64,000 nucleotides of DNA from an uncultured Spirochaetota bacterium. GTDB lineage: Bacteria; Spirochaetota; Spirochaetia; JAFGXN01. The notes beneath the pieces were generated by a model that was not told where the DNA came from, did no database searches, and saw only the letters and a list, made by a program, of their open reading frames with translations. Positions 23,885 through 64,000 of this stretch are shown one piece after another. Every line of letters starts with the position of its first letter. Position 1 is the first letter of the stretch. Both the position numbers and the translations under genes were made by a program. The stretch is from positions 17,160 through 81,159 of the forward strand of contig CALXKN010000008.1 of NCBI GenBank assembly GCA_944388995.1, in the 5' to 3' direction.

Positions 23885-23893
23885 AATTCCATT

Positions 23894-45257: not shown

Positions 45258-45369
45258 AAAAATCTCCTTATTTGCAGTTTAACACTTTTTTTGTGCGGAG
45301 ACAAGAAATTTCGATTTTTTTTTGTTTTTATTGAAGAAAAAATCCTTTTTGACTATTATTATTTATAGT

Positions 45370-46131
45370 ATGAAAACAAAAATTACGGCATTTGTCAATC
45401 AAAAGGGCGGCGTCGGAAAAACGACGACAACAGTAAATCTCGGTGCGTATTTAGCCGACGCGGGGAAAAAAGTTCTTTTAATCGATTTTGATCCACAAGG
45501 AAATCTTTCTTCAAATGTCGGTATTGCCGACGTTGAGAAGGGTATTTACGAATTGCTGGCAGGGCAGGCCGATGCAAATGAATGTGTTTATGAAACGCCT
45601 GTTGACAATCTTTTTGTTTGTCCGACCGATATCAATTTGGCGGGAGGAGCTGTCGAATTGATTTCGGTTGATGATCGGGAATTTGTTTTAAAAGAAGCGA
45701 TGGATGAATGGCGCGGCGTTTACGATTATATTTTTATTGACTGTCCGCCCGCATTGGGAGTACTGACTATTAACGCGTTGACGGCAGCCGATGAGGTGAT
45801 TGTTCCGCTTCAATGTGAATATTTTGCGTTGGAAGGTTTGTCACAGTTATTGGATACGATTGAAATGGTGCGGAATACCACTAACCCGAAATTAACATTT
45901 CCTCGTATACTGTTTACAATGTACGATTCAAGAACCCTTCTTTCCCGCGACGTTGTGGATAATTTGAATCAAAACTATCCGGATCGGCTTTTTAAAACCA
46001 TCATTCCTCGGAATGTCAAGTTGGCAGAAGCGCCGTCTCATGGCGTTCCGATTAATTTATACGACAGTTTATGTCTTGGAGCAAAGAGTTACGAAAATTT
46101 GGCAAAGGAGTATATGAACGATGGCAAATGA
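45370..46131 (+). CDS. parA: Chromosome partitioning ATPase ParA/Soj
   Basis: Deviant Walker A KGGVGKTT. Start set at MKTKITAFVNQKGGVGKTT. Confidence 0.9.
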   Translation: MKTKITAFVNQKGGVGKTTTTVNLGAYLADAGKKVLLIDFDPQGNLSSNVGIADVEKGIYELLAGQADANECVYETPVDNLFVCPTDINLAGGAVELISVDDREFVLKEAMDEWRGVYDYIFIDCPPALGVLTINALTAADEVIVPLQCEYFALEGLSQLLDTIEMVRNTTNPKLTFPRILFTMYDSRTLLSRDVVDNLNQNYPDRLFKTIIPRNVKLAEAPSHGVPINLYDSLCLGAKSYENLAKEYMNDGK

Positions 46132-47029
46132 AAATCGTCCTGCAAGAATGAAACGATCGGGATTAGGAAAAGGGATCGAAAATCTGAAACCGAAGGCAGC
46201 GGCTCCTTCCGTAAAAAAGTGGGAAGAAGAGGCGGCCCAAAACGGCGGTATTCGCGAAATTGCGCTCGATGATATTTTTGCCTATACCGATCAGCCGAGA
46301 AAATATTTTGATGAAGAGTCTTTAAACGAACTGGCCGATTCGATTCGGCAAGTCGGCGTTCTGCAGCCGATTTTGGTTATCAGTCGCGAGTCGCGGTATA
46401 TGATTGTTTCCGGAGAACGGCGTTACCGCGCCGCGGTCAAAGCCGGCTTGAAAACCATTCCGGCAGTGGAAATGTCGTTGACTGACGAAAAAGCGGATGA
46501 AATTGCGGTTATTGAAAATATTCAGCGTGAAGATTTAACTCCACTGGAAGAAGCGCGCGCTTATCAGGCGTTAATGCGCCGTTACGGTTATACGCAGGAG
46601 CAGGTTGCCGAAAAAGTCGGAAAAAAGCGTTCGACAATCACCAATGCCGTCCGTTTACTGAAATTACCTGAAGACATTTTAACCGGATTGGAAGAAAATA
46701 AAATTACAGCGGGACATGCACGGAGTTTGGCCGGGTTAAAAAAAGAATCGGAAATGCGGAAGTTTTATCAGATGATTATCTCAAAAGGTTTAAGCGTCCG
46801 CGATATTGAAAAACTTCTGGCAAAAGACGAAAAAAAGGCGGAACCGACAGCGGCCGCCGGAAAACCGTCCAAATCGGAGGATATTCTCGCCGTTGAATCG
46901 CAGTTGATGGAACGGCTGGGAACTCACGTTCTTATCAACGGAACGGAAAAACGGGGAAAAATTGTCATTGATTATTATTCGCTCGATGATTTAAATCGAT
47001 TGATCGAACTGTTGGGAGGCGGTTTTTAA
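46121..47029 (+). CDS. parB: Chromosome partitioning protein ParB/Spo0J
   Basis: ParB box (GERRYRAA) and HTH (QEQVAEKVGKKRSTITNAVRLLKLP). Overlaps parA. Confidence 0.9.
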   Translation: MANENRPARMKRSGLGKGIENLKPKAAAPSVKKWEEEAAQNGGIREIALDDIFAYTDQPRKYFDEESLNELADSIRQVGVLQPILVISRESRYMIVSGERRYRAAVKAGLKTIPAVEMSLTDEKADEIAVIENIQREDLTPLEEARAYQALMRRYGYTQEQVAEKVGKKRSTITNAVRLLKLPEDILTGLEENKITAGHARSLAGLKKESEMRKFYQMIISKGLSVRDIEKLLAKDEKKAEPTAAAGKPSKSEDILAVESQLMERLGTHVLINGTEKRGKIVIDYYSLDDLNRLIELLGGGF

Positions 47030-53403: not shown

Positions 53404-55218
53404 CTATTCTTTTTTTTCGAAAACGTATCTGATGTCAAAACTGTCGAGAGCATCAAATGTCACATTTTCCCATTTATTGCGAACGGCCAAAAACGCATAC
53501 GGCCGCACCAGATAAACCAGCGGCACCTCTTCCCAAATGATTGACTGGTAACGGTCCCACAACGCTTTCGCCTTTTCGGCATCCGCGGTGTAGGAGGCTT
53601 CCGTATACAGACGGTCGATTTCGGCTTCCCATTCGGTTGCCGGCGTTTTCTGATTTGGATACCACATATGGAGGTTGCCGCCGCTCGGCCACACGTTGAC
53701 GCCCTGGCTCGGAAACAGGTTGCTGCCGGAAAGCGCAATCGACAACGACTGCCAATCGAACGAGTAGAGGAGGGAGTCTACCATTTTCGCAAAATCGACC
53801 GTGCGGATTTCCATCGCAATTCCCTGTTTTTTCAAATCATCGGCATAAATGTTGGCAATGTCCGACAGCTGCGGATTGTCAGCGGAAATCCAAAAGTCAA
53901 ACGCGACGGCGTTGCCCTCTTTATCGCGTAAAACGCCGGCAGAGTCCTTCTCCATTCCGATAGACGTCAACAGCGCGGCCGCTTTTTCCGGATTGTAAAA
54001 ATAGTTGAAAACAAGACTCTCCTCAAACACCGGCGAGGCTTCATGAAAAAAGTGGGTGACCGGTTTCGCTAAACCACGGTAAACATTGCGGATGATTTTT
54101 TCCCGATCCAGAAGGCAGCTCATTGCCTGCCGGAACTCTTTCTGTGAAAACCAATTATAATACTTGCGAGGCAGCGCACTGCGGTTAGGGTTTTGATTCC
54201 ACGTGATAAAAGCCGCTGTCGGAGCCGGACCGCCGTTAATCACCTCGTAACCGCCTTTTTCCTGTTCGGACAGCACGGAATCCAAATCGGCAGGCATCAC
54301 CGACAGCGTTTCCAGTTCGCCGTTTTTGAAAAGCAGCAGCTGCGTTGAAGGATTGGAAACGAACGAAAAACGCACCGTATCAAGGTAGGGCAGCCGCTGA
54401 CCGACGCTGTCTTCCAAAAAATAGTGCGGGTTGCGCCGCAGCTCCAAAACCAGTCCGGGCGTGTAACGGCTGATGTAAAACGGTCCGGCAGTCGGAACGG
54501 TGCTCGGATCGGTATTAATGGTAATAAAATCAATGACACGTTGAGAGCCGCCTTCCTTCTTTGCCGCCTCATAAAGAAACCGCGGCCCGATTTGCAGATT
54601 CGCCGCCAACAAAGGATCGGCGACAATTCGCGGAAAAGTCAGCCGAAACGACGAATCGGTCAGCTTCTCCGCGGTAATTTCGCCGCGGCTCCCGTCCGGC
54701 ATCGGCACAAACATCCCCGAATATTCAGCCATATTCAAAGCCGGATCTTTGATGATTTCCTCAATCCAAAAAACAGCGTCGTCGGCATTGAATGCGATTG
54801 TTTCGCCTGTCTTCGGCACAAACCAACACAAACCCGACTTAAATGTGAAATCAACCTCGGTGACCTGACGCTGCTCATCAACACGGACTTCAAAATCGGC
54901 AATGTGCCCCGACCATTTTTTTTCATAAACATCATATTCCAACAAATACGGACAAAGGTAACTCATCACAGCGCTCGTTGGTAAATCATTGATACGCGTC
55001 AAATTGAATGTCGACGGGTCCGACTCCATCGCCTCGTTCCAAACCCCACCGTAACGTCCGATTTTCCGCTCTCCGCCGCCCGGCCGAACCGTCATCTGCG
55101 ACAGAAAGCCGTTTTGGGCTTCCGCCCGCAAAGCCGCCGCCTCCTGCGTCGACACTTCCTTTTTCGGACCGCATGAAACTGCAGCCGCCGCCAAAACCGC
55201 CAAAAAAAAGCCCTTCAT
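53404..55218 (-). CDS. ABC transporter substrate-binding lipoprotein, family 5 (peptide/nickel, OppA-like)
   Basis: Lipobox AAVSCG. 604 aa with SBP_bac_5-like length and pattern. Confidence 0.75.
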   Translation of the reverse strand: MKGFFLAVLAAAAVSCGPKKEVSTQEAAALRAEAQNGFLSQMTVRPGGGERKIGRYGGVWNEAMESDPSTFNLTRINDLPTSAVMSYLCPYLLEYDVYEKKWSGHIADFEVRVDEQRQVTEVDFTFKSGLCWFVPKTGETIAFNADDAVFWIEEIIKDPALNMAEYSGMFVPMPDGSRGEITAEKLTDSSFRLTFPRIVADPLLAANLQIGPRFLYEAAKKEGGSQRVIDFITINTDPSTVPTAGPFYISRYTPGLVLELRRNPHYFLEDSVGQRLPYLDTVRFSFVSNPSTQLLLFKNGELETLSVMPADLDSVLSEQEKGGYEVINGGPAPTAAFITWNQNPNRSALPRKYYNWFSQKEFRQAMSCLLDREKIIRNVYRGLAKPVTHFFHEASPVFEESLVFNYFYNPEKAAALLTSIGMEKDSAGVLRDKEGNAVAFDFWISADNPQLSDIANIYADDLKKQGIAMEIRTVDFAKMVDSLLYSFDWQSLSIALSGSNLFPSQGVNVWPSGGNLHMWYPNQKTPATEWEAEIDRLYTEASYTADAEKAKALWDRYQSIIWEEVPLVYLVRPYAFLAVRNKWENVTFDALDSFDIRYVFEKKE

Positions 55219-55254
55219 GCCGCCATAGTAAAAGAAAGCCGCCGTCCTGTCAAC

Positions 55255-55421
55255 CTTTTCGTTTTTTGGGCGCGCGCCCCTGCGGGGCGCCGGGCTTTCC
55301 GCTGCAATTCGCAGCCTCCCTGCGCCTTCACCGCGGCAAAGCTGCCGCTTTGCCCTGCGCCTTCTCTCCGTCGGCAGCTCATTTCCGCTTCAATCCCTCG
55401 CGCCTTCGGCAAGGTGCTGCG
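55255..55421. repeat. GC-rich 166-bp direct repeat, copy 1
   Basis: Near-identical (1 indel) to 56426-56591. About 70% GC with internal hairpins (ggcaaagc-tgcc-gctttgcc; gggcgcgcgcccc…ggggcgcc). Confidence 0.9.
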
Positions 55422-55515
55422 GAAATCGGCATTTTATTGTTTTAGTGTAAAAATGGGAACTTCCGAAAACAGTCAACCGTTTTTCGGAAAAATAACTGCC
55501 CTAAACGTATTTTTG

Positions 55516-55524
55516 TGTTATAAT
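55516..55524 (+). promoter_or_regulatory. Extended -10 (TGtTATAAT) upstream of the MNT/HEPN pair
   Basis: tgtTATAAT at 55516-55524, about 90 nt before the MNT start. Confidence 0.4.
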
Positions 55525-55616
55525 AACTCCAATAAAAATTTCGTATGGCAAACACAGCAAAAGCAAAACCCGAAAAAAACGCCGATTAAAACCGGAGCGG
55601 AAGATTCGGGAGAAAC

Positions 55617-55922
55617 TTGGAGCGATCGGGTATGAGCTGTAATCTTCCTGAAAGCGTGGTTTTCGATATTGAACGATTCGCAAAGAAAAACAAGATTAAA
55701 AAGGTCGTTCTGTTTGGCTCCCGCGCGAGGGGCAATCATTCGGAACGAAGCGACATTGATTTGGCGGTCAGCGGTGGAAACGCGGCGGATTTTTATTACG
55801 ACGTCAATGAAGAAGCGCGGACTCTTTTAATTTTTGATGTGGTCAATCTGGACGGACCGGTCAGCGGCGAACTGCGCGCCGAAATAGAAAAGGACGGAGT
55901 TTTACTCTATGAAGAAATTTGA
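55617..55922 (+). CDS. Minimal nucleotidyltransferase (MNT) antitoxin-type protein
   Basis: GSRARG…SDIDL motif (Pol-beta NTase fold). Confidence 0.8.
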   Translation: MERSGMSCNLPESVVFDIERFAKKNKIKKVVLFGSRARGNHSERSDIDLAVSGGNAADFYYDVNEEARTLLIFDVVNLDGPVSGELRAEIEKDGVLLYEEI

Positions 55923-56304
55923 CAATTTTTGCAAAGCGCTTTCGAATTTGCGGGAAGGATTGCAGCTTGAAGAACCGTATTCTGTCGTCGAACGGACGGG
56001 CATCATCGGGCTGTTTGAAATTTGCTTTGAGCAGGCATGGAAGCTGATGAAAGCGGTTTTGGAAGAGCACGGCAGGACAATCGACCGCGTCGGTTCCCCG
56101 AAAGTTGTCATTCAGCTTGCATATCAGAGCGGGATGATTGACGACAGCGAAAAATGGCTTTCCCTGCTCAGAGATCGAAATATCCTTGCTCACACCTACA
56201 GCGACGAAGATTCGCTTGCCGTGATTCGAACGTTAAAGACGGACTACGAGCCCTTGTTCGCCACCCTCAAAGAAGAGATTGAAACGCGCCGGCTTTCGGC
56301 GTAA
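55909..56304 (+). CDS. HEPN-domain toxin-type protein (HI0074/nucleotidyltransferase-substrate-binding family)
   Basis: Rx4-6H motif (RDRNILAHTY). Overlaps the MNT gene by 14 nt. Confidence 0.75.
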   Translation: MKKFDNFCKALSNLREGLQLEEPYSVVERTGIIGLFEICFEQAWKLMKAVLEEHGRTIDRVGSPKVVIQLAYQSGMIDDSEKWLSLLRDRNILAHTYSDEDSLAVIRTLKTDYEPLFATLKEEIETRRLSA

Positions 56305-56425
56305 AGCGGAGGCGCGAAACAACTGAGTCCGGTATGAAAGTAGAAGAAATGGGAGCGAAAACTCTTTCAATCGCCACTGATTCTGCCAGCATCTTTACAT
56401 TTGGCTCCGCCCCCCCTCGCTGAAT

Positions 56426-56591
56426 CTTTTCGTTTTTTGGGCGCGCGCCCCTGCGGGGCGCCGGGCTTTCCGCTGCAATTCGCAGCCTCCCGCGCCTTCA
56501 CCGCGGCAAAGCTGCCGCTTTGCCCTGCGCCTTCTCTCCGTCGGCAGCTCATTTCCGCTTCAATCCCTCGCGCCTTCGGCAAGGTGCTGCG
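56426..56591. repeat. GC-rich 166-bp direct repeat, copy 2
   Basis: See copy 1. Preceded by a C7 tract (56410-56416). Confidence 0.9.
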
Positions 56592-56655
56592 AAAGAGGCG
56601 TCTGAAAACTATAAATATGAGAACAATCTCATTTAAACCTCATCCATTTTTATCT

Positions 56656-59541
56656 TCAGCAGAAATGCGCCATATCGCGCGGATAATACTTGCAGTCGTG
56701 CAGTTCCGTGTCGTCAAGCCCCAGCGCCTTTACCAGGGCAGCAGACGCTATGCACCAGTACCCGCGGTACTGGTTCTTTTTCAAGTCAAATTTTGTTATA
56801 AGCCCATCAGTCTTCGTGTGAATCCACTGTCTTTTAAGATACCGTTTTAACCGCTCAACAGCCGCCGCTTTATTCTCTTTTGAAAGCAGTACCACCTCAT
56901 ATACCGCATTGGAATATTTCGGACAGCAGAGCTTTTCCGTGCGTATCTGCCAGGATGAGTCCAGCGTCTGCATAAGGAAATCCAGATAAAAATCCCGCTG
57001 TTCCGATTTTTGTAACAATTTTCGATAGTCATCCAGAAATTCAGTCCTGTTAAAAAGCATAATCAAGTACAGAACAGTTTCCATATCTTCATAATTATCA
57101 TTGCCGTCCTGTGCGTCTATCAAATGACGCAAAATCAGGTCTACTTCGGGAAGCAGCTCATGCATATCTAGCCCTAAGGAATATCCTGTATAAAATTTGT
57201 AAAATGCATAAGTATATATTTGATATTTAAACGCTCTTATGTCCGATTCTGCCTGATGTTCATCAGTCTCAATATTATGATGATGATACGTTTGCAGTAT
57301 TTCTTTCAGCTTTTGGGAATCTTTCTTGAATCTTTCGTCAAAATATTCCTGGGGTTTGACTTTATCCCTCATCATTCTTACCCGGGGCGGAAGTTTTTCC
57401 CGCTCCTCCTCCGTAAGAAATTGCGACAGTTCAACTAAAAAGGGCTCTATAAACTCCGACATGAGTTTCGCTTTATTCCCGGCTGAGTGATCATAAGGTA
57501 TTTCAATTGCCGATGTCCGCCGTTTCTCATCCTTCCACAAGCGTCCTATTTTAATAAATGAACCGCCTTTCTCAAATATGTACAACGATATAATCAGTGT
57601 GCAGTCTTCATACTCACATTCTATATAATCTTGCTCCCCCAAGCAGTAATCTCTGTAGGTAAGATTCCTCAAAGTGGTTATTATCCAGGGTATCCACTCT
57701 TTTTTGATGACAACACTATCCCATGACTGCCATGACCCGGTACCGAAACGGCTGCCGGTTCTGGTGTTGATTCGTAGTTCGCCTTTGGGACTCCAGGGCG
57801 TGGGAAGTTTTTTCCGTTCTTCTTCAGGAAGAAATTGTGACAAGGCCACTAAGAAGGGTTCTATAAATTCCGACATGATTTTCAAGTCGTTGTCCGATTC
57901 TTCAAAATTAAATTCGAAACGGGTATAACGCCACTTTGATGTCAGGGTATAACTCTGCTCATTTTTTGCATGCCAAGGAAAATAAGGTATTTCAAGTGCC
58001 GGCGATATCTTCTTTTCATCCTTCCACATGGGAAATATTTTTATATAGGAATACCCATCCCCTATAGGACAGATACTTAATGTTAATTGGCACGTTCCCC
58101 ATTTATTTATGATGCTTTCAACTCCTGTTTGATAATTATCAACACTAAGATTTCTCAATGTGCTTATTATCCAGGGTATCCGGTTTTTTTGTATAACAAT
58201 ACTTTTCTGCTGCCCGCCGCCGAATGTACCGGTTCTTTTTCCGTTAATCCGTAATTCATCGTTATCTAATTCCTCGAAGCTGTATTCAAAATCGGCATTC
58301 AGAGTTTTTTTGCTTTGATATTTTGTTATCTTCTCTATTTTGGCTACTATCGATTCGTCGTCCGACTTATCGGTTTCGCCTGCATACCAATCTTTGCCTT
58401 CGAGCCATACCCCGAACCAGAAAGGAAGATCCCCCCAAGGTCTTTGACAGAGTTCTTTCTTTTCGTTGACACTCCAGGGGGGCGACAGTTTACCCCTTTC
58501 TTCTTCCGTGAGAAACTGCGACAATGCAACCAGAAACGGCTCTATAAATTCCGACATTAATTTTGTTTCTTTCCGGGATACATAGGGTATTTCAATATTC
58601 CATGAACTCTTATTTTCATTTTTCCAGACAGGATAAATTTTGATATAGGAATAATCAAAGGGTACTACATTTATAATAAAACTTAAATTACAGTAACCGT
58701 ATTCATATACGAGAGTTTGCGGGGTGTTATAATCGTCGATAGTGGCATTTCTTAGTGTGGTAATGATCAAAGGTATCCACGCTTTTTTTATGATAATACT
58801 TTCCCATTGTCCCCTGCCGAATGAATCTGTTCGCTTTGCATTGATTTCCAACTCGTCATCATTTAATTCTTCATTGTCAGCTTTTTCCTCAAAATAAAAT
58901 TCGAAATGAACATTCCCGCCCTTACTGATCAGGTATTCTTTTTCTGCCAGTCCGTATTGTGTTATACCGGTCATTGCTTTGAAAAAATTGAGGGAACCGC
59001 TTTCCTTATCGGCAAAAATGATGTTCTGTTTTTTGTTTTCCCTCCAGGGAGGCGGAAGTTGTGTTCTTTCTTCTTCGGTAAGGAATTGTGCCAATTCAAC
59101 CAAAACAGGTTCGATAAATTCCGCCATTAACCTGCTTTTATCCCAGGGTAGATATGGTATTTCAATAAACGGTGTCGTTTTTTCCTTCGGTTCCTTCCAT
59201 ATGGGCATTATTTGAAGGGTCGCATAATCTTTGGCAGATGGTAAAAACTCCAGATTGACTTGACATTCTTCATATTCGTGAACGATATGTCTGTTCCAAA
59301 TCCCTTCCGGAAAGTTGATGTCGTAATCCTCAAAAGGAAGGGTTCTCAGTGTGGTGATAATCCGGGAAATCCACGCTTTTTTTATGACGATACAGTAATA
59401 CAAAGGCATACGTTCCGCTTCATCCAACAATGGAAAGGTTATTTTTTCGAAAATCCGTATTTCGTCGTTGTCCGATTCCTCAAAATGAAATTCAAAGGTA
59501 TCGGATATTTCGGCATCTCCCCTTCTGCCTGTAATGAACAT
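56656..59541 (-). CDS. Novel 961-aa protein: four tandem ~180-aa repeats plus C-terminal ~210-aa domain (paralogue of the next gene)
   Basis: Repeat hallmarks FEFxFEESDNDELRI…KRTxxFGxGxWxSxxIKKxWIPxIITTLRN…YIKIxPxWKxE…IEIPY…SEFIEPFLVxLSQFLTEEERxKLPPPW occur four times. The C-terminus is about 65% identical to the 59781-60401 product. Confidence 0.7.
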   Translation of the reverse strand: MFITGRRGDAEISDTFEFHFEESDNDEIRIFEKITFPLLDEAERMPLYYCIVIKKAWISRIITTLRTLPFEDYDINFPEGIWNRHIVHEYEECQVNLEFLPSAKDYATLQIMPIWKEPKEKTTPFIEIPYLPWDKSRLMAEFIEPVLVELAQFLTEEERTQLPPPWRENKKQNIIFADKESGSLNFFKAMTGITQYGLAEKEYLISKGGNVHFEFYFEEKADNEELNDDELEINAKRTDSFGRGQWESIIIKKAWIPLIITTLRNATIDDYNTPQTLVYEYGYCNLSFIINVVPFDYSYIKIYPVWKNENKSSWNIEIPYVSRKETKLMSEFIEPFLVALSQFLTEEERGKLSPPWSVNEKKELCQRPWGDLPFWFGVWLEGKDWYAGETDKSDDESIVAKIEKITKYQSKKTLNADFEYSFEELDNDELRINGKRTGTFGGGQQKSIVIQKNRIPWIISTLRNLSVDNYQTGVESIINKWGTCQLTLSICPIGDGYSYIKIFPMWKDEKKISPALEIPYFPWHAKNEQSYTLTSKWRYTRFEFNFEESDNDLKIMSEFIEPFLVALSQFLPEEERKKLPTPWSPKGELRINTRTGSRFGTGSWQSWDSVVIKKEWIPWIITTLRNLTYRDYCLGEQDYIECEYEDCTLIISLYIFEKGGSFIKIGRLWKDEKRRTSAIEIPYDHSAGNKAKLMSEFIEPFLVELSQFLTEEEREKLPPRVRMMRDKVKPQEYFDERFKKDSQKLKEILQTYHHHNIETDEHQAESDIRAFKYQIYTYAFYKFYTGYSLGLDMHELLPEVDLILRHLIDAQDGNDNYEDMETVLYLIMLFNRTEFLDDYRKLLQKSEQRDFYLDFLMQTLDSSWQIRTEKLCCPKYSNAVYEVVLLSKENKAAAVERLKRYLKRQWIHTKTDGLITKFDLKKNQYRGYWCIASAALVKALGLDDTELHDCKYYPRDMAHFC

Positions 59542-59780
59542 TGCATCTACCAGTTTAAGAAAAGCTTTTGTATCAGCGGATTGGGCAGATTCTTCATGTT
59601 GATCGTCTTCTTTATTATATTTTATTCCGACTCCTAAGGAACGCAGCCGTCATATCGAAGGGGTGCAACGGTATGACGGCCAACACTCCGCTTTCACGCG
59701 GTGGTCTTATGCTGTTCATGTCGATACCGGACCGCTTCCGACACAACCGAATGAAGTTTTCCGATTTTCCGAATCAATTT

Positions 59781-60401
59781 CTAACAGAAATGGGTCATAT
59801 CGTAGGGATAGTATTTACAGTCTTTCAGTTCCGTATCGTCAAGTTTGAGGGCTTTTACCAAAGCGGCGGCGGCGATGCACCAATACCCCCGGTACCACCC
59901 TATTTTCAGATCCCGGTTGGTTATAACACCTTCGGTTAATGACATAAACCACTGCCTTTTAAGATACCTCTTTAACCGCTGGACGGCTTCCGCCTTGTTT
60001 TCTTTTGACAGCATTACCACCTCGTATACCGAATTGGTCTCTTTGGGGCAACGAAGTTTTTCCGTACTTATCTGCCATGTGGAGTCTACTATCTGTACAA
60101 GATAATCCAGGTAAAAATCCCGCATTTTCGATTTTTGTAATAACTCCTTATATTCATCCAGAAATTCTGTCCGGTTAAAAAGAATGATTAAGTATATAAT
60201 CATTTCCATATCATCATAACCTCTGTCCCTTTCTCTCGTTGTATCAATCAAATTTCTTATGATAAGGTCTACTTCGGGAAGCAGCTCATTCATACCAAGC
60301 CCCAGGGAATAGCCTGCATAAAATTTACAAGCTGCTTCCATATATATGTGATATTTAAACGACCATACATTATATTTTTCCGGATGGCTTATTCTCTTCA
60401 T
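59781..60401 (-). CDS. Stand-alone 206-aa paralogue of the C-terminal domain of the 961-aa protein
   Basis: YxGYSLGLxMxELLPEVDLIxRxLID…CKYYPxDMxHFC is shared with the 961-aa protein. Confidence 0.7.
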   Translation of the reverse strand: MKRISHPEKYNVWSFKYHIYMEAACKFYAGYSLGLGMNELLPEVDLIIRNLIDTTRERDRGYDDMEMIIYLIILFNRTEFLDEYKELLQKSKMRDFYLDYLVQIVDSTWQISTEKLRCPKETNSVYEVVMLSKENKAEAVQRLKRYLKRQWFMSLTEGVITNRDLKIGWYRGYWCIAAAALVKALKLDDTELKDCKYYPYDMTHFC

Positions 60402-60643
60402 ATTTACTCATCCGTTCAGCAAGATCAGACGCATCCTTATTATATCTTTCCCTAAAATATTCTTCTGTTTTTATGGTGTCTCTCATCTGTTATTCCTTGT
60501 GTATTTTGTAAATTTTTGGTTTATTCTCGTTATACATAACATTGCCATTTTCATCAAGTTGGTAATATGTTACTTTTCCTCCCTTCGGAACGCCTGCGGC
60601 GTGGCTACAATCCTTTGTGCGAGAAGATTTTTATCAATGGTGT

Positions 60644-60700
60644 CCGTACACACCCATTGATGTTGTCAAAGAACTCCTTCTGTACGGAGATAGGGGGAGG
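60644..60700. repeat. 57-bp exact repeat with 7-bp inverted repeat (CCGTACA…TGTACGG), copy 1
   Basis: Identical to 63943-64000. Starts 2 nt after the stop of the 75-aa gene. Confidence 0.9.
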
Positions 60701-60701
60701 G

Positions 60702-60929
60702 TTATTCAAAAGTTATTACCATATGCGAACCTGCCGTTTTTTCGGTTACTTTCTGTATAATCTCTTTTTTGTCATCTTCAGTTAATGGCTCGTTTTCTGG
60801 AACAAGCCAATTTTTCATTGAACTTTTATAACAGACAAAACCGCCTACTATCATTTCGCCTGCGATTCTCGCAGTTCTGCCATCGAGTTCTACATCTATG
60901 TATGTGTTTGTTCCGGTTATTTTTGTCAT
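60702..60929 (-). CDS. 75-aa hypothetical protein (partner of DUF600-like gene in duplicated module)
   Basis: MTKITGTNTYIDVELDGRTARIAGEMIVGGFVCYK…. A truncated second copy lies at 62300-62353. Confidence 0.5.
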   Translation of the reverse strand: MTKITGTNTYIDVELDGRTARIAGEMIVGGFVCYKSSMKNWLVPENEPLTEDDKKEIIQKVTEKTAGSHMVITFE

Positions 60930-60938
60930 ATATTAATC

Positions 60939-61271
60939 CTATGCATTATCCCATTCGTCTTGAAGAGCCTGATCCCATTCAAAGGTCATATCAAAGTGAC
61001 CGTTCTTTTCAAGGGTGTAAATAGCTTTGTTCCATTGTGCAAAATGTAACTCTTTTGCACTATTATGAAATTTTATTAAATCAATTTTTGTTTCTCGATT
61101 AAGTGCTAAGTTTAAAGCATTTTTCCATTCTCCATTAATCTGATATTTTGCATTCGTACCAATATATTTATCACTACATTCAATATTCAGTTCAATTTTA
61201 TCCCAAGAGGAATCAATACTATCATTCAATTGCGAACCAATATTTTTATATATATCTTCAATATTTTTCAT
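60939..61271 (-). CDS. DUF600 (YezG/EsaG)-like putative immunity protein, copy D
   Basis: N-terminus IEDIYKNI…SSWDKIEL and C-terminus WNKAIYTLEKNGHFDMTFEWD fit the DUF600 pattern (…EWEKVYLY…, W.NL.L..ER.G.F.IDYDY). AGGAG RBS overlaps the upstream nuclease-fragment stop. Confidence 0.5.
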   Translation of the reverse strand: MKNIEDIYKNIGSQLNDSIDSSWDKIELNIECSDKYIGTNAKYQINGEWKNALNLALNRETKIDLIKFHNSAKELHFAQWNKAIYTLEKNGHFDMTFEWDQALQDEWDNA

Positions 61272-61282
61272 AAATACTCCTA

Positions 61283-61657
61283 TTAATTTAAGAAGAACAA
61301 ATTTTCTGTTTTTTCTATTTTTCCATCCGATGTTTTTATAATGTATGTTACATCAAAATCTGTCGGTCTTAGATTATCAGCATAGTTTATTTTTATATCA
61401 ACTTCAACCTTTTTTCCCTCTGAAAGTGCATCGTTCCATTTTTTTTCCATGGTTTTCCATTCACCATTATTTAGTGTGGCGGTTTGTGGAACATAATTTA
61501 TTTGTTCTCCAGGACCATTGAAAATTCTTGCAATAATATGTCCGCCCTGGTCATCACCTTTAATACCATCTTTTATATCAACTGATTTTCCTTGTTGATA
61601 AACATTTCTGTCTTTTGTTTCAAGTTTTAATTCTCCGCTTACTTTGTTTTACAACTA
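61283..61657 (-). pseudogene. Orphan/pseudogenised nuclease toxin C-terminal domain (Serratia NucA-like bba-Me / Endonuclease_NS_2, EsaD/YeeF-type)
   Basis: Minus-strand frame encodes …GDDQGGHIIARIFNGPGEQINYVPQTATLNNGEWKTMEKKW… (compare Serratia DRGHQ…NITPQKSDLNQGAW). It has no start codon and in-frame TAG (61655-61657) and TAA (61649-61651). An upstream fragment (…DADYEDIVAALNRFGTIASKRK) in the same frame extends to 61731. Confidence 0.6.
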
Positions 61658-61731
61658 TTTTCTTTTACTTGCAATTGTTCCAAAACGATTAAGTGCAGCA
61701 ACAATATCTTCATAATCAGCATCTATTTCAT

Positions 61732-62262
61732 CTAACTGTCCCAGATTTCCTTAAATTTTAAACCTTTGATACTGTTTTTCTTAACAATATCTATAAACTC
61801 ATCTGTTACAAAATAATCTCGAATAATTAATTGATTTTGTAGTTTAACTTGAAAAAGAGGTGGATAATTGTTTTCCTTAAAATAATATTGCTCAACACCT
61901 AAAATATCATTCTCAAAATACTTATATTTAGTTTTTTTTCGATCTAAGCAGTCCAAAACAGTTAAATTATTTAATAGTACAAAATCGTCATTAAGCGGAA
62001 CAAATCTTATATTTATTTGAGAAATGTCAGAAAGTACTGCCATAAATTTTTTATTTATGAAGAATCCTCTACAATCATAACATTCACAAATATCCCCTGC
62101 AGGATTATTAGAATCTCTATCGTATTCTAATTGAAAATCAGAAGGAATGCTTATTTCTATACCTTTATTAAACTGACGTAAAATTTTTCTATCAGTTTCT
62201 TCGTTTTTTATATAGCATCCTTTGTAATTATCAATATCTGTTTCTAAAATGTATATTTTCAT
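61732..62262 (-). CDS. 176-aa hypothetical protein (AT-rich, possible immunity-type protein)
   Basis: ORF with a G8 tract serving as its RBS. No known motif. Confidence 0.45.
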   Translation of the reverse strand: MKIYILETDIDNYKGCYIKNEETDRKILRQFNKGIEISIPSDFQLEYDRDSNNPAGDICECYDCRGFFINKKFMAVLSDISQINIRFVPLNDDFVLLNNLTVLDCLDRKKTKYKYFENDILGVEQYYFKENNYPPLFQVKLQNQLIIRDYFVTDEFIDIVKKNSIKGLKFKEIWDS

Positions 62263-62299
62263 ATATCCCCCCCCTAATTGTGAATTTTTAAGAAACCAC

Positions 62300-62353
62300 T
62301 CAATAATTCCTTTCGGATTGTTTGTATGTGTTTGTTCCGGTTATTTTTGTCAT
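62300..62353 (-). pseudogene. Truncated remnant of 75-aa-family gene (MTKITGTNTY then divergent, stop after 17 codons)
   Basis: The first 10 codons and 5' flank are near-identical to the 60702-60929 gene, then homology breaks. Confidence 0.6.
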
Positions 62354-62362
62354 ATATTAATC

Positions 62363-62686
62363 CTATGCATTATCCCATTCGTCTTGGAGAGTTTGATCCC
62401 ATTCAAATGTCATATCAAAATGACCATTCCTTTCAAGAGAGTAAACAGCTTTGTTCCATTTATGCTCAGGCGACATAGATTCTTGAAGTTCAAAAACGCT
62501 ATCCATTAAAGTATTTACAGTTAATAAAGGAAACTTTAATTCTTTTTTTTCAAACGATGATAAAGTATATTCTGCCTGAAATGAACACATTTTATTTAGA
62601 CTTGATTCTATTTTTACAGTCACTTTTTCCCATTTACCGGAAATATTATCTTGAACCGCCTTGCCTAATTCTTTATATAAATCCAT
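62363..62686 (-). CDS. DUF600 (YezG/EsaG)-like putative immunity protein, copy B
   Basis: C-terminus WNKAVYSLERNGHFDMTFEWDQTLQDEWDNA is near-identical to copy D. Confidence 0.5.
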   Translation of the reverse strand: MDLYKELGKAVQDNISGKWEKVTVKIESSLNKMCSFQAEYTLSSFEKKELKFPLLTVNTLMDSVFELQESMSPEHKWNKAVYSLERNGHFDMTFEWDQTLQDEWDNA

Positions 62687-62732
62687 AGCATCTCCATTAA
62701 TTGTTGAATATTTTTTTGAATAGTTGGCTCAT

Positions 62733-63842
62733 TTATTTCTCTTTATTTAAAATAAACAGATACTCAGAGACGTGTATATTACGGTTATTCAAATTTCTGC
62801 TTCCCCGGAATGTATTATAAGTCATTTCAACGGTTTTCAGTTTTCCGTAGTGTTCCAGCATTGTTTTCATTTGCTCAAAAGTAATAAATCCTTCAGAATT
62901 ATAAGAGATAATGACAAACTTTGAATCAATTTTATCTATGATTTTTTCCATGGATTTTAAGGCTGAATAAGGTTTGTTGAATTCCGAGCGGTTCCAATCC
63001 TGAGTTATCCCTGAAACTTTACTGATTTCAGCATCCAGCCTGTTCTTTATGATAAGATTCAGCATAAAATAATTTGAACCATAGGGATGCTGGTTATACG
63101 GGGGATCCAGATAAGTAATATCTATTTTTTTTAATTCCCCGGCAAGTTCCACAGCATCTTTTTTATAGATTTTAACCTTTGAATTGAAATTGCTTAAAAC
63201 CGGCTCTTTCAGTTCTATTTTTCCAAAAATGCGGGTTAAAGCGTTTTTCCCGGCAGCGCCGAAACATCCGATTCCGGTATTTTTGTCCTTGTAAAACCCT
63301 TTGAAAACCCCGCTTGTATTGACATGAACCGAAGCCTCCGTTACGAGCGGCGCTAAAAAAAATTTTTTCATGTCTTCTTCCTGCACCACTTTATCAATCA
63401 GACTGCGGTAAGTGTCGATTAACAGAGCGTTCTCATGGGTATAAAAAACCCTTTCTCCTCTTTGAATATTTCCGTCATCCTGAGGGGCATAATTTTTTGT
63501 GATAATTCTCGGTTCTTTTTTGCTGCGGCACATTTCTTCTATTATTGATTTATATTCCCGCCATTTTTCATGCGGAAAATCTTTTTTGTCAGTCAGATAG
63601 CATTCATTGATGAGGCGGGAATATTCTTCCAGATCATTGGCAATTAAAACACTGCTGTATTTTTTCAGCATCCGGGCAACAATTCCCGAACCGGAGAAAA
63701 TATCCGCACAAACAAGTTTTTCTTTTCCCAATAAACCGGCAATTTTTTTGACTTCTTCTTCTATATTCCTGATAAGCTGCCGTTTGTTCCTGATATAAGT
63801 AATGATCTGTGCAGTAAGATATTCTTTATTTTCTTCTTTCAT
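62733..63842 (-). CDS. DNA N6-adenine methyltransferase, D12 class (Dam-like, alpha type)
   Basis: Motif I DIFSGSG and motif IV DPPY in alpha-class order. 369 aa. Confidence 0.7.
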   Translation of the reverse strand: MKEENKEYLTAQIITYIRNKRQLIRNIEEEVKKIAGLLGKEKLVCADIFSGSGIVARMLKKYSSVLIANDLEEYSRLINECYLTDKKDFPHEKWREYKSIIEEMCRSKKEPRIITKNYAPQDDGNIQRGERVFYTHENALLIDTYRSLIDKVVQEEDMKKFFLAPLVTEASVHVNTSGVFKGFYKDKNTGIGCFGAAGKNALTRIFGKIELKEPVLSNFNSKVKIYKKDAVELAGELKKIDITYLDPPYNQHPYGSNYFMLNLIIKNRLDAEISKVSGITQDWNRSEFNKPYSALKSMEKIIDKIDSKFVIISYNSEGFITFEQMKTMLEHYGKLKTVEMTYNTFRGSRNLNNRNIHVSEYLFILNKEK

Positions 63843-63942
63843 GGCTGTAAAGATTTATATTGTTCCAAATTTCCGGTTTATTCTATGCTTTTTGACAGAC
63901 CTTTATACTCAGTATCCCTCTCCGCAAAAATCAACCCGGATT

Positions 63943-64000
63943 TCCGTACACACCCATTGATGTTGTCAAAGAACTCCTTCTGTACGGAGATAGGGGGAGG
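63943..64000. repeat. 57-bp exact repeat, copy 2 (runs into window end)
   Basis: Identical to 60644-60700. Confidence 0.9.

Follow-up and report, generated by a model that had tools for sequence, protein, structure and literature searches.

The island of predicted immunity genes at 60-64 kb of the window, by which we mean the whole 64,000-nucleotide stretch analysed here from an uncultured Spirochaetota bacterium, carries a short DNA module twice and a gene of which one copy is cut short, and this raises the question of which recombination events joined these pieces and from which parents they came. The island has a G+C content of 28-38%, against 40-52% typical of the window, and all of its genes lie on the minus strand. 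It combines the immunity families Imm74, YezG-like (two genes), Imm11-like and PoNi (two genes) with a fragment of an Endonuclea_NS_2 toxin; neither a full-length toxin nor secretion genes were found in it. At the 5' end it borders on a Na/Ala symporter gene of the opposite strand, as seen in the related loci L042 and L032 (L numbers denote the loci fetched for comparison), and the island was found in many human gut metagenome samples. No known RNA family was detected in positions 55000-64000 (sub-threshold matches only, E ~0.7), promoter and terminator counts in 59500-64000 equalled the shuffled expectation, and the sole tRNA of the window lies at 23893. The pieces that matter for the argument are the following.

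60576..60700, minus strand: 3' flank of Imm74, which travels with that gene; a perfect copy of its first 58 nt lies at 63943-64000
60702..60929, minus strand: intact Imm74 gene (75 aa; Tci1 family, immunity to ADP-ribosyl cyclase toxins; Pfam PF15603, 57.6 bits, cut-off 27.1, full length)
60899..61036, minus strand: copy A of the repeat (3' end of DUF600(110), 9-nt spacer, first 31 nt of the intact Imm74)
60939..61271, minus strand: DUF600(110), predicted immunity gene 3' of the EndoNS2 toxin domain (PF04634, 20.8 bits, just below the 21.7 cut-off)
61283..61648, minus strand: EndoNS2, a 5'-truncated Endonuclea_NS_2 (NucA/EsaD-type) toxin domain (Pfam PF13930, 87 bits)
61655..61735, minus strand: ORF fragment, last 26 codons and stop (ending in LDEIDADYEDIVAALNRFGTIASKRK), between junctions J2 and J2b
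61732..62262, minus strand: Imm11-like predicted immunity gene, 176 aa (Pfam PF07791, 19.8 bits, below the 22.1 cut-off)
62267..62274, minus strand: G8 tract, formed by a stop-codon G and the Shine-Dalgarno region of the 176-aa gene
62274..62327, minus strand: tail of an AHH nuclease toxin gene, last 17 codons and stop (tblastn to residues 270-286 of the L014 toxin, 94%)
62300..62353, minus strand: Imm74 stump, 10 homologous codons, 7 unrelated codons and a stop at 62300-62302
62323..62326, minus strand: junction J1, 4-nt microhomology TACA common to Imm74 codon 10 and the AHH toxin gene
62323..62460, minus strand: copy B of the repeat (3' end of DUF600(107), 9-nt spacer, Imm74 codons 1-10 and 1 nt)
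62363..62686, minus strand: DUF600(107), YezG/EsaG-like predicted immunity gene, 107 aa (PF04634, 23.4 bits, cut-off 21.7)
62687..62732, minus strand: spacer in which about 12 frameshifted codons remain of the ORF found in L033 ahead of DUF600(107), the tail of an EndoNS2 variant
62733..63842, minus strand: D12-class N6-adenine DNA methyltransferase gene (Pfam PF02086), inside the immunity array
63943..64000, minus strand: repeat of the 58 nt that open the Imm74 3' flank; the corresponding Imm74 lies past the window end

The repeat is real and far beyond chance. Copies A and B are identical at 128 of 138 positions (92.8%) and include a perfect run of 64 nt (60899-60962 and 62323-62386), a 64-mer that occurs exactly twice in the window and in none of 100 shuffles. 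They are direct repeats offset by 1424 nt with the same order, DUF600 then Imm74, and each comprises the final 97 nt of a DUF600-like gene including its stop codon, the 9-nt spacer and the initial 31 nt of Imm74. The edges are sharp, identity falling from 20/20 to 7/20 on one side and from 17/20 to 6/20 on the other. The original prediction described this content correctly as the 5' end of the 75-aa gene, a 9-nt spacer and the 3' end of a DUF600-like gene, and the duplicated module it reported is present, although the homologous core measures 138 nt rather than about 150 bp. It gave about 88% identity between 60899-61047 and 62313-62461; the identity stands, but the second interval was placed 10 nt too low, since that offset of 1414 leaves 41/149 identical positions, a random level, and an offset of 1424 (60899-61047 against 62323-62471) gives 130/149 (87%). 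The upstream copy of the 75-aa gene does survive as 10 codons (MTKITGTNTY), followed by 7 unrelated codons and a stop. The homology does not stop at 62300, as had been proposed and where the stump ORF ends, but at 62323. The distance from the break to the G8 tract is therefore 48 nt rather than 25 nt, and the ATG of the 176-aa ORF (62262) is 61 nt away.

Both parents of this break could be recovered by a three-way comparison of the window from 60899 onward with positions 1290-1310 of L014. With the join marked by a slash, the intact Imm74 reads GGAACAAACACATACA/TAGATG, the intact AHH toxin gene of L014 and L015 reads AATGAATTACA/AACAATCCGAAAGG, and the window reads AACACATACA/AACAATCCGAAAGG. 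The upstream Imm74 thus breaks off after codon 10, where TACA links it to the 17 terminal codons of an AHH nuclease toxin gene, a tail with 99.5% DNA identity to L014 and L015 in which the AHH catalytic motif is absent. The 40-mer spanning J1 is present in 12 locus records. The idea that a cassette was inserted or deleted by recombination at this point is supported by the two parental sequences. The join is illegitimate, through microhomology, and not site-specific.

The segment 61283-62262 proved to be a composite of three pieces. Junction J2 altered the C-terminus of the 176-aa protein, which ends in WDS in the window and in WDREKD elsewhere. The 26-codon fragment between J2 and J2b was seen only in contigs of the window's own locus, and its parent was not found in any fetched locus outside it. 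The EndoNS2 fragment covers the catalytic region (aligned to residues 94-199 of the protein P0013) without a start codon and with stop codons upstream. A search for its full-length parent toxin among 5.8 billion proteins returned 64 homologues, all of at most 207 aa and many of them chimeric.

The neighbours of these genes in the related loci point to their toxin partners. The 176-aa gene sits after AHH toxins in L014, L031 and L002, the AHH genes being fuller in L014 and L031 (L014 toxin: Pfam PF14412, 65.5 bits), and a more distant Imm11-type protein of 202 aa (Imm11, 23.2 bits) occupies the same position after an AHH-like toxin in L018; the 176-aa gene is accordingly predicted to be the cognate immunity gene of the AHH toxin. 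The length of the G tract ahead of it differs among loci (G8, G7 or G4). DUF600(110) starts at 61271, next to the end of the EndoNS2 fragment at 61283, and the same pairing recurs in L033, L035 and L042; the exact DUF600(110) protein is found in 173 blocks of the collection. The match of DUF600(107) covers positions 4-120 of the 146 of the PF04634 profile, and a 108-aa DUF600 paralogue in L004 scores 24.3 bits. Imm74 lies directly after ARC toxins in L022, L024, L026 and L027 and follows one with a single immunity gene between in L014 and L018. The partner toxin domain matches PDB entry 9ro8_A (E=1e-62), which identifies it as an ADP-ribosyl cyclase toxin. No ARC toxin sequence was detected in the window by tblastn, and Imm74 is an orphan there. 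Searches of PDB sequences with DUF600(110), DUF600(107) and Imm74 gave no match. From family membership and gene neighbourhood we infer an immunity function for the island genes, and their pairings agree with those published, namely Imm11 with Tox-AHH, DUF600/Imm36 with Tox-NucA and Imm74 with Tox-ARC (PMC3482391; PMC12356396).

The same pieces occur in at least eight other arrangements among the fetched loci, each with its own breakpoint, and the base-resolved junctions show 1-10 nt of microhomology: 10 nt (GATATTCAAA) between the parents in L015, about 3 nt in L006 and L002, 1 nt in L007 and TAGGAG in L030. Imm74 is also truncated and fused to other DNA in L033 and L031, with stumps of 10, 12, 20, 25 and 26 codons across loci, and the EndoNS2-DUF600(110)-Imm74 module has four 5' truncation points (61735/61648, 61649, 61545 and 61411). 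Longer stretches are also common to other loci, as in L002 (1835-2144 against window 60953-60643, 97% match) and L033 (10683-11091 against window 62733-62323, 91.7%). The AHH-tail/176 cassette was found in three other contexts at 99.5-99.8% identity. The presence or absence of the segment in related strains had been proposed as a check, and polymorphism was found. The arrangement varies at another locus, one that lies downstream of a flagellar operon, with DUF600(110)-Imm74 lacking the 176/179-aa cassette in L005, L008 and L010 and the cassette present in L006, L009 and L013, 99.5-99.8% identical to that of the window. At the window's own locus, on the other hand, the arrangement is identical in all 10 independent contigs spanning J1, so that the event was not caught in the act there, and no strain without the segment was found among the exact-protein look-ups. 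The nearest case is L016, from a related MAG, which carries Imm180-Imm74-flank(1-61) followed by a 5'-truncated PoNi, lacks the 3.3-kb unit from methyltransferase to Imm74 and is otherwise not syntenic.

Within the block itself, the comparison with L033 revealed a conversion tract. The DUF600(110) body is identical at 235 of 235 positions in the window and L033, and yet the L033 block differs from that of the window at 8 of 138 sites, all carrying the copy-B allele, and matches the DUF600(107) block of L033 itself at 137 of 138 (Fisher p = 3e-4). Mosaic block haplotypes such as AAAABBBAAA and BABABBBBBB were likewise found on DUF600(110) bodies, and block identity reaches 92.8-99.3%, against about 51-64% for the DUF600 gene bodies. 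Gene conversion has therefore taken place within the 138-nt block. Moreover, the view that the likeness arose at the DNA level and not by protein convergence is borne out by the conserved non-coding spacer and synonymous sites and by the mosaic haplotypes.

Altogether, we consider it likely, with a probability of about 80%, that the island is a degenerate polymorphic-toxin cassette array of a Treponema-like gut spirochaete, built by block recombination and illegitimate joins. From the block, the breakpoints with their parents, the alternative arrangements and the conversion tract observed, a probable order and route of events can be proposed. The island is a toxin-less chromosomal set of orphan immunity genes and toxin stumps. 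Its two YezG/EsaG-type (DUF600) immunity genes have diverged over the rest of their length, and the 138-nt copies are the conserved block of homology at their 3' ends, probably kept alike by homologous recombination or gene conversion between paralogues. The upstream Imm74 was probably destroyed by the illegitimate join leading from its codon 10 through TACA into the last 17 codons of the AHH toxin, a fusion that placed the 176-aa immunity gene of that toxin directly downstream. J1 may have arisen either by microhomology-mediated deletion inside a longer array or by homology-facilitated illegitimate recombination in which incoming DNA was anchored on Imm74 and its 3' flank. At every junction of the island the net effect is the same, immunity ORFs being left intact and toxin ORFs deprived of their 5' ends, and selection has presumably favoured the retention of the immunity genes.

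Other histories of the locus were weighed against these data. An in-situ tandem duplication of a DUF600-Imm74 unit, followed by divergence of DUF600 and entry of a cassette into one Imm74, would produce direct repeats 1424 nt apart in the same gene order, as found here, but it sits badly with gene bodies of about 55% DNA identity flanking a sharp-edged block of 93%, with the mosaic block haplotypes, and with the separate occurrence of DUF600(107) and DUF600(110), also in the opposite order, in L030 and L033. Besides, each of the two DUF600 genes is preceded by the tail of a separate EndoNS2 variant, and the DUF600(110) bodies of the window and L033, being 100% identical, indicate that the pair within one genome are not closest relatives, all of which makes this history improbable. 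A similarity owed to selection on the protein C-terminus, without DNA exchange, can draw on the common 32 C-terminal residues (NKAxYxLExNGHFDMTFEWDQxLQDEWDNA), which resemble a conserved structural element; the perfect 64-nt run, however, extends over synonymous sites and the stop codon and on through the non-coding spacer into a second gene, the alignments as read show 10 differences of which about half are synonymous, the synonymous sites of the block are not saturated, and the conversion tract (p = 3e-4) speaks against it, so that this explanation is barely credible. A chimera, in which the repeat led the metagenome assembler to join non-adjacent contigs, is suggested by L011 and L012, which end inside copy B (window 62409 and 62377) and indicate that assembly graphs fork at the repeat, but J1, J2 and J2b recur at 99.7-100% identity in 12-13 locus records, which stem from no fewer than 10 independent samples and assemblies, and we give an artefact hardly any weight.

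A site-specific capture of toxin-immunity cassettes by a recombinase, as in integrons or rAID-1 clusters, with its target either close to the Imm74 start or in the 58-nt repeat, would account for the perfect 58-nt direct repeat that brackets a 3.3-kb unit and for the recurrence of Imm74 stumps, and one contig (P0007) fuses a resolvase N-terminus to EndoNS2. Against it, the breakpoints all lie at different positions with different microhomology, the Imm74 3' flank is broken at about 17, 23, 58, 61, 110, 114 or 125 depending on the locus, and in some loci it extends for another 200-335 nt and is therefore not a discrete site. No recombinase was found in the 20 kb adjoining one side of the island or at its 5' border, nor any tRNA at the island borders, and beyond a modest hairpin (z = -2.1) the flank has no attC-like symmetry. 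Such a capture is thus quite unlikely, even more so than the tandem duplication. The 58/125-nt sequence after Imm74 had itself been considered as the end of a mobile element or an att site, and was rejected, as homology continues 200-335 nt past 60576 in L005, L006, L009, L014 and L015, its cut points vary by locus, and it folds only modestly better than shuffles.

The closest precedents for a degenerate array of this kind are the recombination of esaG paralogues in Staphylococcus and effector displacement in Vibrio immunity arrays. At the T7SS locus of Staphylococcus aureus, tandem esaG (DUF600) paralogues that are divergent overall recombine at short blocks of high DNA identity, one of them over the gene end and the downstream intergenic region, which alters copy number and yields chimeras (Garrett et al., 2022; PMC9484751). 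The island has the same immunity family beside the same toxin type (Endonuclea_NS_2, EsaD/YeeF type), and its DUF600 pair likewise has a high-identity block over gene end and spacer with exchange inside it. It differs in its host, a spirochaete and not a firmicute, in the absence of a T7SS or full-length toxin, in the single common block at the 3' end (no 5' or central blocks were seen between DUF600(107) and DUF600(110)), in the reach of that block into a different gene, Imm74, and in an array that is heterogeneous rather than a run of esaG copies. In the T6SS clusters of Vibrio cholerae, sequential displacement of effectors leaves arrays of orphan immunity genes, and the mechanism proposed is homology-facilitated illegitimate recombination, anchored by homology at one end and joined illegitimately at the other (Kirchberger et al., 2017; PMC5361080). 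Orphan immunity genes, remnants of 3' effector ends and mosaic pieces common to strains are features of both, whereas for the island the joins and their microhomologies are known at base level, a further immunity gene (Imm74) forms the conserved anchor on the right, and no secretion-system cluster or active effector stands at the head.

Heterogeneous polyimmunity loci and toxin cassette arrays have also been described, with immunity genes outnumbering toxin genes in Treponema denticola, and the definition given there for polyimmunity loci excludes any interruption by toxin cassettes (Zhang, Aravind et al., 2012; PMC3482391). Like these loci, the island consists of co-directional, closely spaced and unrelated immunity families (Imm74, DUF600/Imm36, Imm11-like, PoNi), but the EndoNS2 fragment (61283-61648) and the AHH tail (62274-62327) lie between them, and with these stumps the island takes an intermediate place between cassette arrays and pure polyimmunity loci. 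It also resembles the acquired interbacterial defence clusters (rAID-1) of Bacteroidales (Ross et al., 2019; bioRxiv 10.1101/471110) as a row of orphan immunity genes with one orientation and low G+C content, carried by a gut bacterium, and differs from them in host phylum, in having no XerD-like tyrosine recombinase at its 5' end or in 20 kb on the other side, and in having no repeated intergenic motif between all genes, only the Imm74 3' flank being repeated (twice, and not as a discrete element). Unlike an integron, it has no intI integrase that we could find, and its cassette borders lie at different, unrelated sequences.

A more ambitious reading, which we put forward only tentatively and think rather doubtful, is that gut Treponema-like spirochaetes use the ARC toxin and Imm74 as a fixed frame for selected cassette exchange. 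A second toxin and immunity gene (AHH/Imm11-like or EndoNS2/DUF600) may be nested inside this frame, after the ARC domain ends and before Imm74, which may form the right border. On the left, a conserved linker (VIFERKAGTVYVKPNETLIKNGxWD) of about 88 nt at about 96% DNA identity is followed by abrupt divergence, and composite two-domain toxins with mirrored immunity-gene order were seen in L014, L018, L030 and L042. The ARC-toxin paper makes no mention of such an exchange system. If this reading were true, the 138-nt block would be the right-hand exchange anchor of a dedicated cassette-swapping architecture and not a mere scar.

Taken as a degenerate cassette array, the island is a clear but ordinary case of a known process and reveals no new mechanism. 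What it offers is a record, at single-base resolution, of the building and pruning of an immunity-gene island in uncultured gut spirochaetes, with two processes side by side, as short homology blocks would let divergent immunity paralogues swap ends and microhomology joins would remove toxin genes and spare the antidotes. The esaG and Vibrio models would thereby be extended to another phylum, and the island suggests that these bacteria encounter AHH, NucA-type and ADP-ribosyl-cyclase toxins of their neighbours.

The repeat that marks the proposed recombination site is real and non-random. A repeat search returned a single direct repeat in the area, 60899-61036 (copy A) and 62323-62460 (copy B), 138 nt long with a spacing of 1424 and 93% identical (128/138 at that offset). 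It holds a perfect 64-nt run (60899-60962 = 62323-62386), found exactly twice in the window and in 0 of 100 shuffles, and its edges are sharp, identity dropping from 20/20 to 7/20 on one side and from 17/20 to 6/20 on the other. The original prediction had written the second interval (62313-62461, offset 1414) 10 nt off, where identity is random (41/149); its figure of about 88% is recovered at offset 1424 (130/149, 87%). All genes of the area are on the minus strand, and each copy spans, as predicted, the 3' end of a DUF600-like gene (last 97 nt including the stop), GATTAATAT as spacer and 31 nt from the start of Imm74, the 75-aa gene. Conservation of the spacer and of synonymous sites makes protein-level constraint or convergence alone an unlikely explanation. 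In copy B, the upstream copy, Imm74 indeed survives as 10 homologous codons (MTKITGTNTY), followed by 7 unrelated codons and a stop at 62300-62302; homology ends at 62323, and the end previously placed at 62300 is that of this stump ORF.

Features of the island, 5' to 3' (DUF600 paralogues, which are YezG/EsaG-like, are named by length in aa; L numbers are related loci)
64000-63943, minus, first 58 nt of the Imm74 3' flank, Imm74 itself lying past the window end (L002 has AHH-Imm180-Imm74 there)
63842-62733, minus, D12 adenine methyltransferase (MTase) gene, family match
62732-62687, minus, frameshifted ~12-codon remnant of the ORF preceding DUF600(107) in L033
62686-62363, minus, DUF600(107), 23.4 bits against a cut-off of 21.7
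62353-62323, minus, Imm74 codons 1-10
62327-62274, minus, 3' end of an AHH toxin gene, 17 codons and the stop (matching L014 toxin residues 270-286)
62274-62267, minus, G8 tract
62262-61732, minus, Imm11-like gene, 176 aa, 19.8 bits (below cut-off), end altered (WDS-stop against WDREKD-stop in other loci)
61735-61655, minus, final 26 codons of a further ORF
61648-61283, minus, Endonuclea_NS_2 (EndoNS2) toxin fragment, 87 bits, with stops upstream and no start codon preceding the catalytic region
61271-60939, minus, DUF600(110), 20.8 bits against a cut-off of 21.7
60929-60702, minus, intact Imm74, 75 aa, 57.6 bits
60700-60576, minus, Imm74 3' flank
59781-60401 and 56656-59541, minus, PoNi immunity proteins, family match

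The segment 61283-62262 had been treated as one unit, and the base-level mosaic resolves it into three pieces. The AHH tail (62327-62274) shares 94% amino-acid and 99.5% DNA identity with the L014 toxin. At the junction between the Imm74 stump and this tail (J1), intact Imm74 reads ...GGAACAAACACATACA followed by TAGATG, the intact AHH gene of L014 and L015 reads ...AATGAATTACA followed by AACAATCCGAAAGGAATT, and the window reads ...AACACATACA followed by AACAATCCGAAAGGAATT. With both parents of the joint seen, the point is confirmed as a recombination junction; TACA (62323-62326) is the only sequence that the parents have in common, and J1 is an illegitimate join at microhomology. The G tract between the AHH stop and the Imm11-like ATG (62267-62274) overlaps the ribosome-binding site; its length is G8 in the window and L006, G7 in L009, L013, L014 and L015, and G4 in L031, sequencing error being possible.

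The G+C content of the island is 28-38% against 40-52% typical of the window, and the gene pairings match published toxin/immunity pairs, namely Imm11 with Tox-AHH, DUF600/Imm36 with Tox-NucA and Imm74 with Tox-ARC (PMC3482391; experiments on Tac1/Tci1 in PMC12356396). In firmicute and proteobacterial loci, the toxin domain 5' of Imm74 matches PDB 9ro8_A ('ADP-ribosylcyclase toxin', E=1e-62). The methyltransferase gene sits within the immunity array without an adjoining restriction enzyme gene, and since its stop codon abuts the toxin-tail remnant, it was also joined in by an illegitimate event. Additionally, a perfect 58-nt direct repeat (60643-60700 and 63943-64000) runs past the window end and forms the start of the non-coding 3' flank (60576-60700) that accompanies Imm74; with Imm74 included, the true repeat, seen via L002, is 311 bp at 97%. 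As it brackets the 3.3-kb MTase-to-Imm74 unit, recombination between its copies would delete this unit. The 961-aa ORF at 56656-59541 encodes a polyimmunity-type fusion protein of four ~190-aa repeats followed by PoNi_N and PoNi_C, single units of which are fused to an EndoNS2-variant tail in related loci (p103 of L002). Beyond it, G+C-rich direct repeats of ~173 nt (55252-55424 and 56423-56594, 98-99% identical) flank an MNT/HepT (nucleotidyltransferase/HEPN) toxin-antitoxin pair (55617-56304); they are predicted to fold into a row of small GC hairpins (z = -2.4), and an Rfam search gave no family, the best hit being a sub-threshold Flavo-1 (E = 0.76). The partition genes ParA/ParB (45322-47029) are ~9 kb away, so the island sits in a normal part of the chromosome, perhaps close to the origin.

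In all, 48 related loci were collected by looking up the exact proteins and scanning genomes. The close relatives are human-gut metagenome assemblies and MAGs carrying the label Spirochaetes, Spirochaetia or Treponema; three contigs are in MAGs labelled Mucispirillum and may be mis-binned. The comparison for polymorphism proposed earlier revealed the same pieces in at least 8 other arrangements, with and without the cassette, including those below.

Alternative arrangements (a slash marks a junction)
L005, L008, L010: flagellar operon-Methyltransf_3 / EndoNS2 fragment-DUF600(110)-Imm74
L006, L009, L013: the same locus, plus DUF600(108) 5' half / AHH tail-179 aa between DUF600(110) and Imm74 (inserted cassette 99.5-99.8% identical to the window's)
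L004: DUF600(110)-DUF600(108)-Imm74
L007: DUF600(110)-Imm74 codons 1-12 / flank position 74
L030: DUF600(110)-Imm74 codons 1-25 / DUF600(107)
L033: DUF600(110)-Imm74 codons 1-26 / SUKH-...-DUF600(107)-Imm74
L031: AHH-179 aa-Imm74 codons 1-20 / other toxin genes
L014, L015: AHH-179 aa-Imm74
L016: Imm180-Imm74-flank(1-61)-truncated PoNi, the 3.3-kb MTase-to-Imm74 unit absent

Short microhomology is common to the two parents of these junctions wherever a comparison was possible (GATATTCAAA in L015, ~3 nt in L006 and L002, 1 nt in L007, TAGGAG in L030), and the EndoNS2 fragment has 4 different 5' truncation points in 4 contexts. P0007 (L041 1455-1964), in which the first ~80 residues of a serine resolvase are fused to EndoNS2 from GGHIIARIF onward, is another illegitimate join; no other recombinase sequence was seen close to the modules. 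The window's own locus showed no polymorphism: 12 locus records, representing 10 independent contigs, contain the J1 40-mer in one identical arrangement, and the exact 176-aa protein, whose C-terminus is made by the junction at the 3' end of its gene (J2), is on 14 contigs with the same gene order in 14/14.

The 138-nt block also behaves as a recombination substrate. Bodies of different paralogues are only 51-64% identical, their blocks 93-99%. At the 10 sites where copies A and B differ, blocks beside DUF600(110) elsewhere read BABABBBBBB (L033, L035-L037) or AAAABBBAAA (L030). Between the window and L033, the DUF600(110) body is identical at 235/235 nt and the block next to it shows 8 differences in 138 sites, 8/8 carrying the B allele (Fisher p = 3e-4); this L033 block matches the DUF600(107) block of the same locus at 137/138 positions and is a gene-conversion tract.

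A combination of two processes is best supported. Homologous exchange in the DUF600 3' block would keep the 138 nt alike and could add or remove units, and illegitimate microhomology joins would strip toxin 5' parts, leaving immunity ORFs and their ribosome-binding sites intact. J1 could have arisen by deletion inside a longer array or by one-step homology-facilitated illegitimate recombination anchored in Imm74 and its flank. From this second route one expects precisely the order of Imm74 5' stump, inserted DNA and intact Imm74 seen in the window and L033, and the data fit both routes. In-situ duplication of the unit is improbable: too much divergence separates the gene bodies, and at other loci the paralogues lie apart and in opposite order. 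Site-specific cassette capture is likewise disfavored, given that all breakpoints differ, the island has no recombinase and the flank of Imm74 does not form a discrete site. Two contigs stop inside copy B, where the repeat forks assembly graphs, as an assembly chimera might suggest, but at least 10 independent assemblies agree and exclude it.

The newest aspect is a nested frame of ADP-ribosyl cyclase (ARC) domain and Imm74, of putative function, seen in related loci and mostly beyond the window. Composite toxins in Treponema-like MAGs carry an ARC domain, the linker ...VIFERKAGTVYVKPNETLIKNGxWD and then AHH (L014 494-1354; L018 5760-7349, 529 aa, AHH-like) or EndoNS2 (P0013, L030, L042); no Pfam family matched the first 100 residues of the L018 protein. 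On their 3' side, the second domain's immunity gene comes first and Imm74 next; the Imm11-type gene and then Imm74 after the ARC-AHH toxins of L014 and L018 put the immunity genes in mirrored order. The ARC tail and linker are ~96% identical in DNA over ~88 nt between AHH- and EndoNS2-bearing genes and diverge abruptly afterward; second-domain cassettes are therefore nested, with an unchanging border on the left and Imm74 on the right. The ARC part is wholly lost from the window, and the complete island rebuilt with L042, bounded by a Na/Ala symporter gene and an SBP_bac_5 gene, has no full-length toxin or recombinase. In the lineage of the window, a region upstream of the island (L042 1393-2031) holds a 212-aa ORF that starts with an ATG of its own behind AT-rich DNA and codes for the ARC tail, the linker and what looks like a complete domain of an EndoNS2 variant. 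DUF600(108) should come next, but this gene is cut short and fused to a piece of AHH sequence without the AHH motif. The nuclease may be intact and yet have no cognate immunity gene of its own.

The closest precedent is the esaG (DUF600) paralogues of S. aureus, which have three homology blocks in common and change copy number by recombination between paralogues (PMC9484751); one block covers the gene end and intergenic region, as the 138-nt block covers the DUF600 end and spacer. Orphan immunity arrays with effector remnants, for which homology-facilitated illegitimate recombination was proposed, occur in Vibrio cholerae (PMC5361080). A heterogeneous polyimmunity locus is similar in kind, but its definition excludes toxin stumps such as those that break up this island. 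The island also lacks the 5' XerD-like recombinase of rAID-1. Overall, the significance of the scar is modest: it is a real, well-resolved recombination scar of an already known kind in a new host group.
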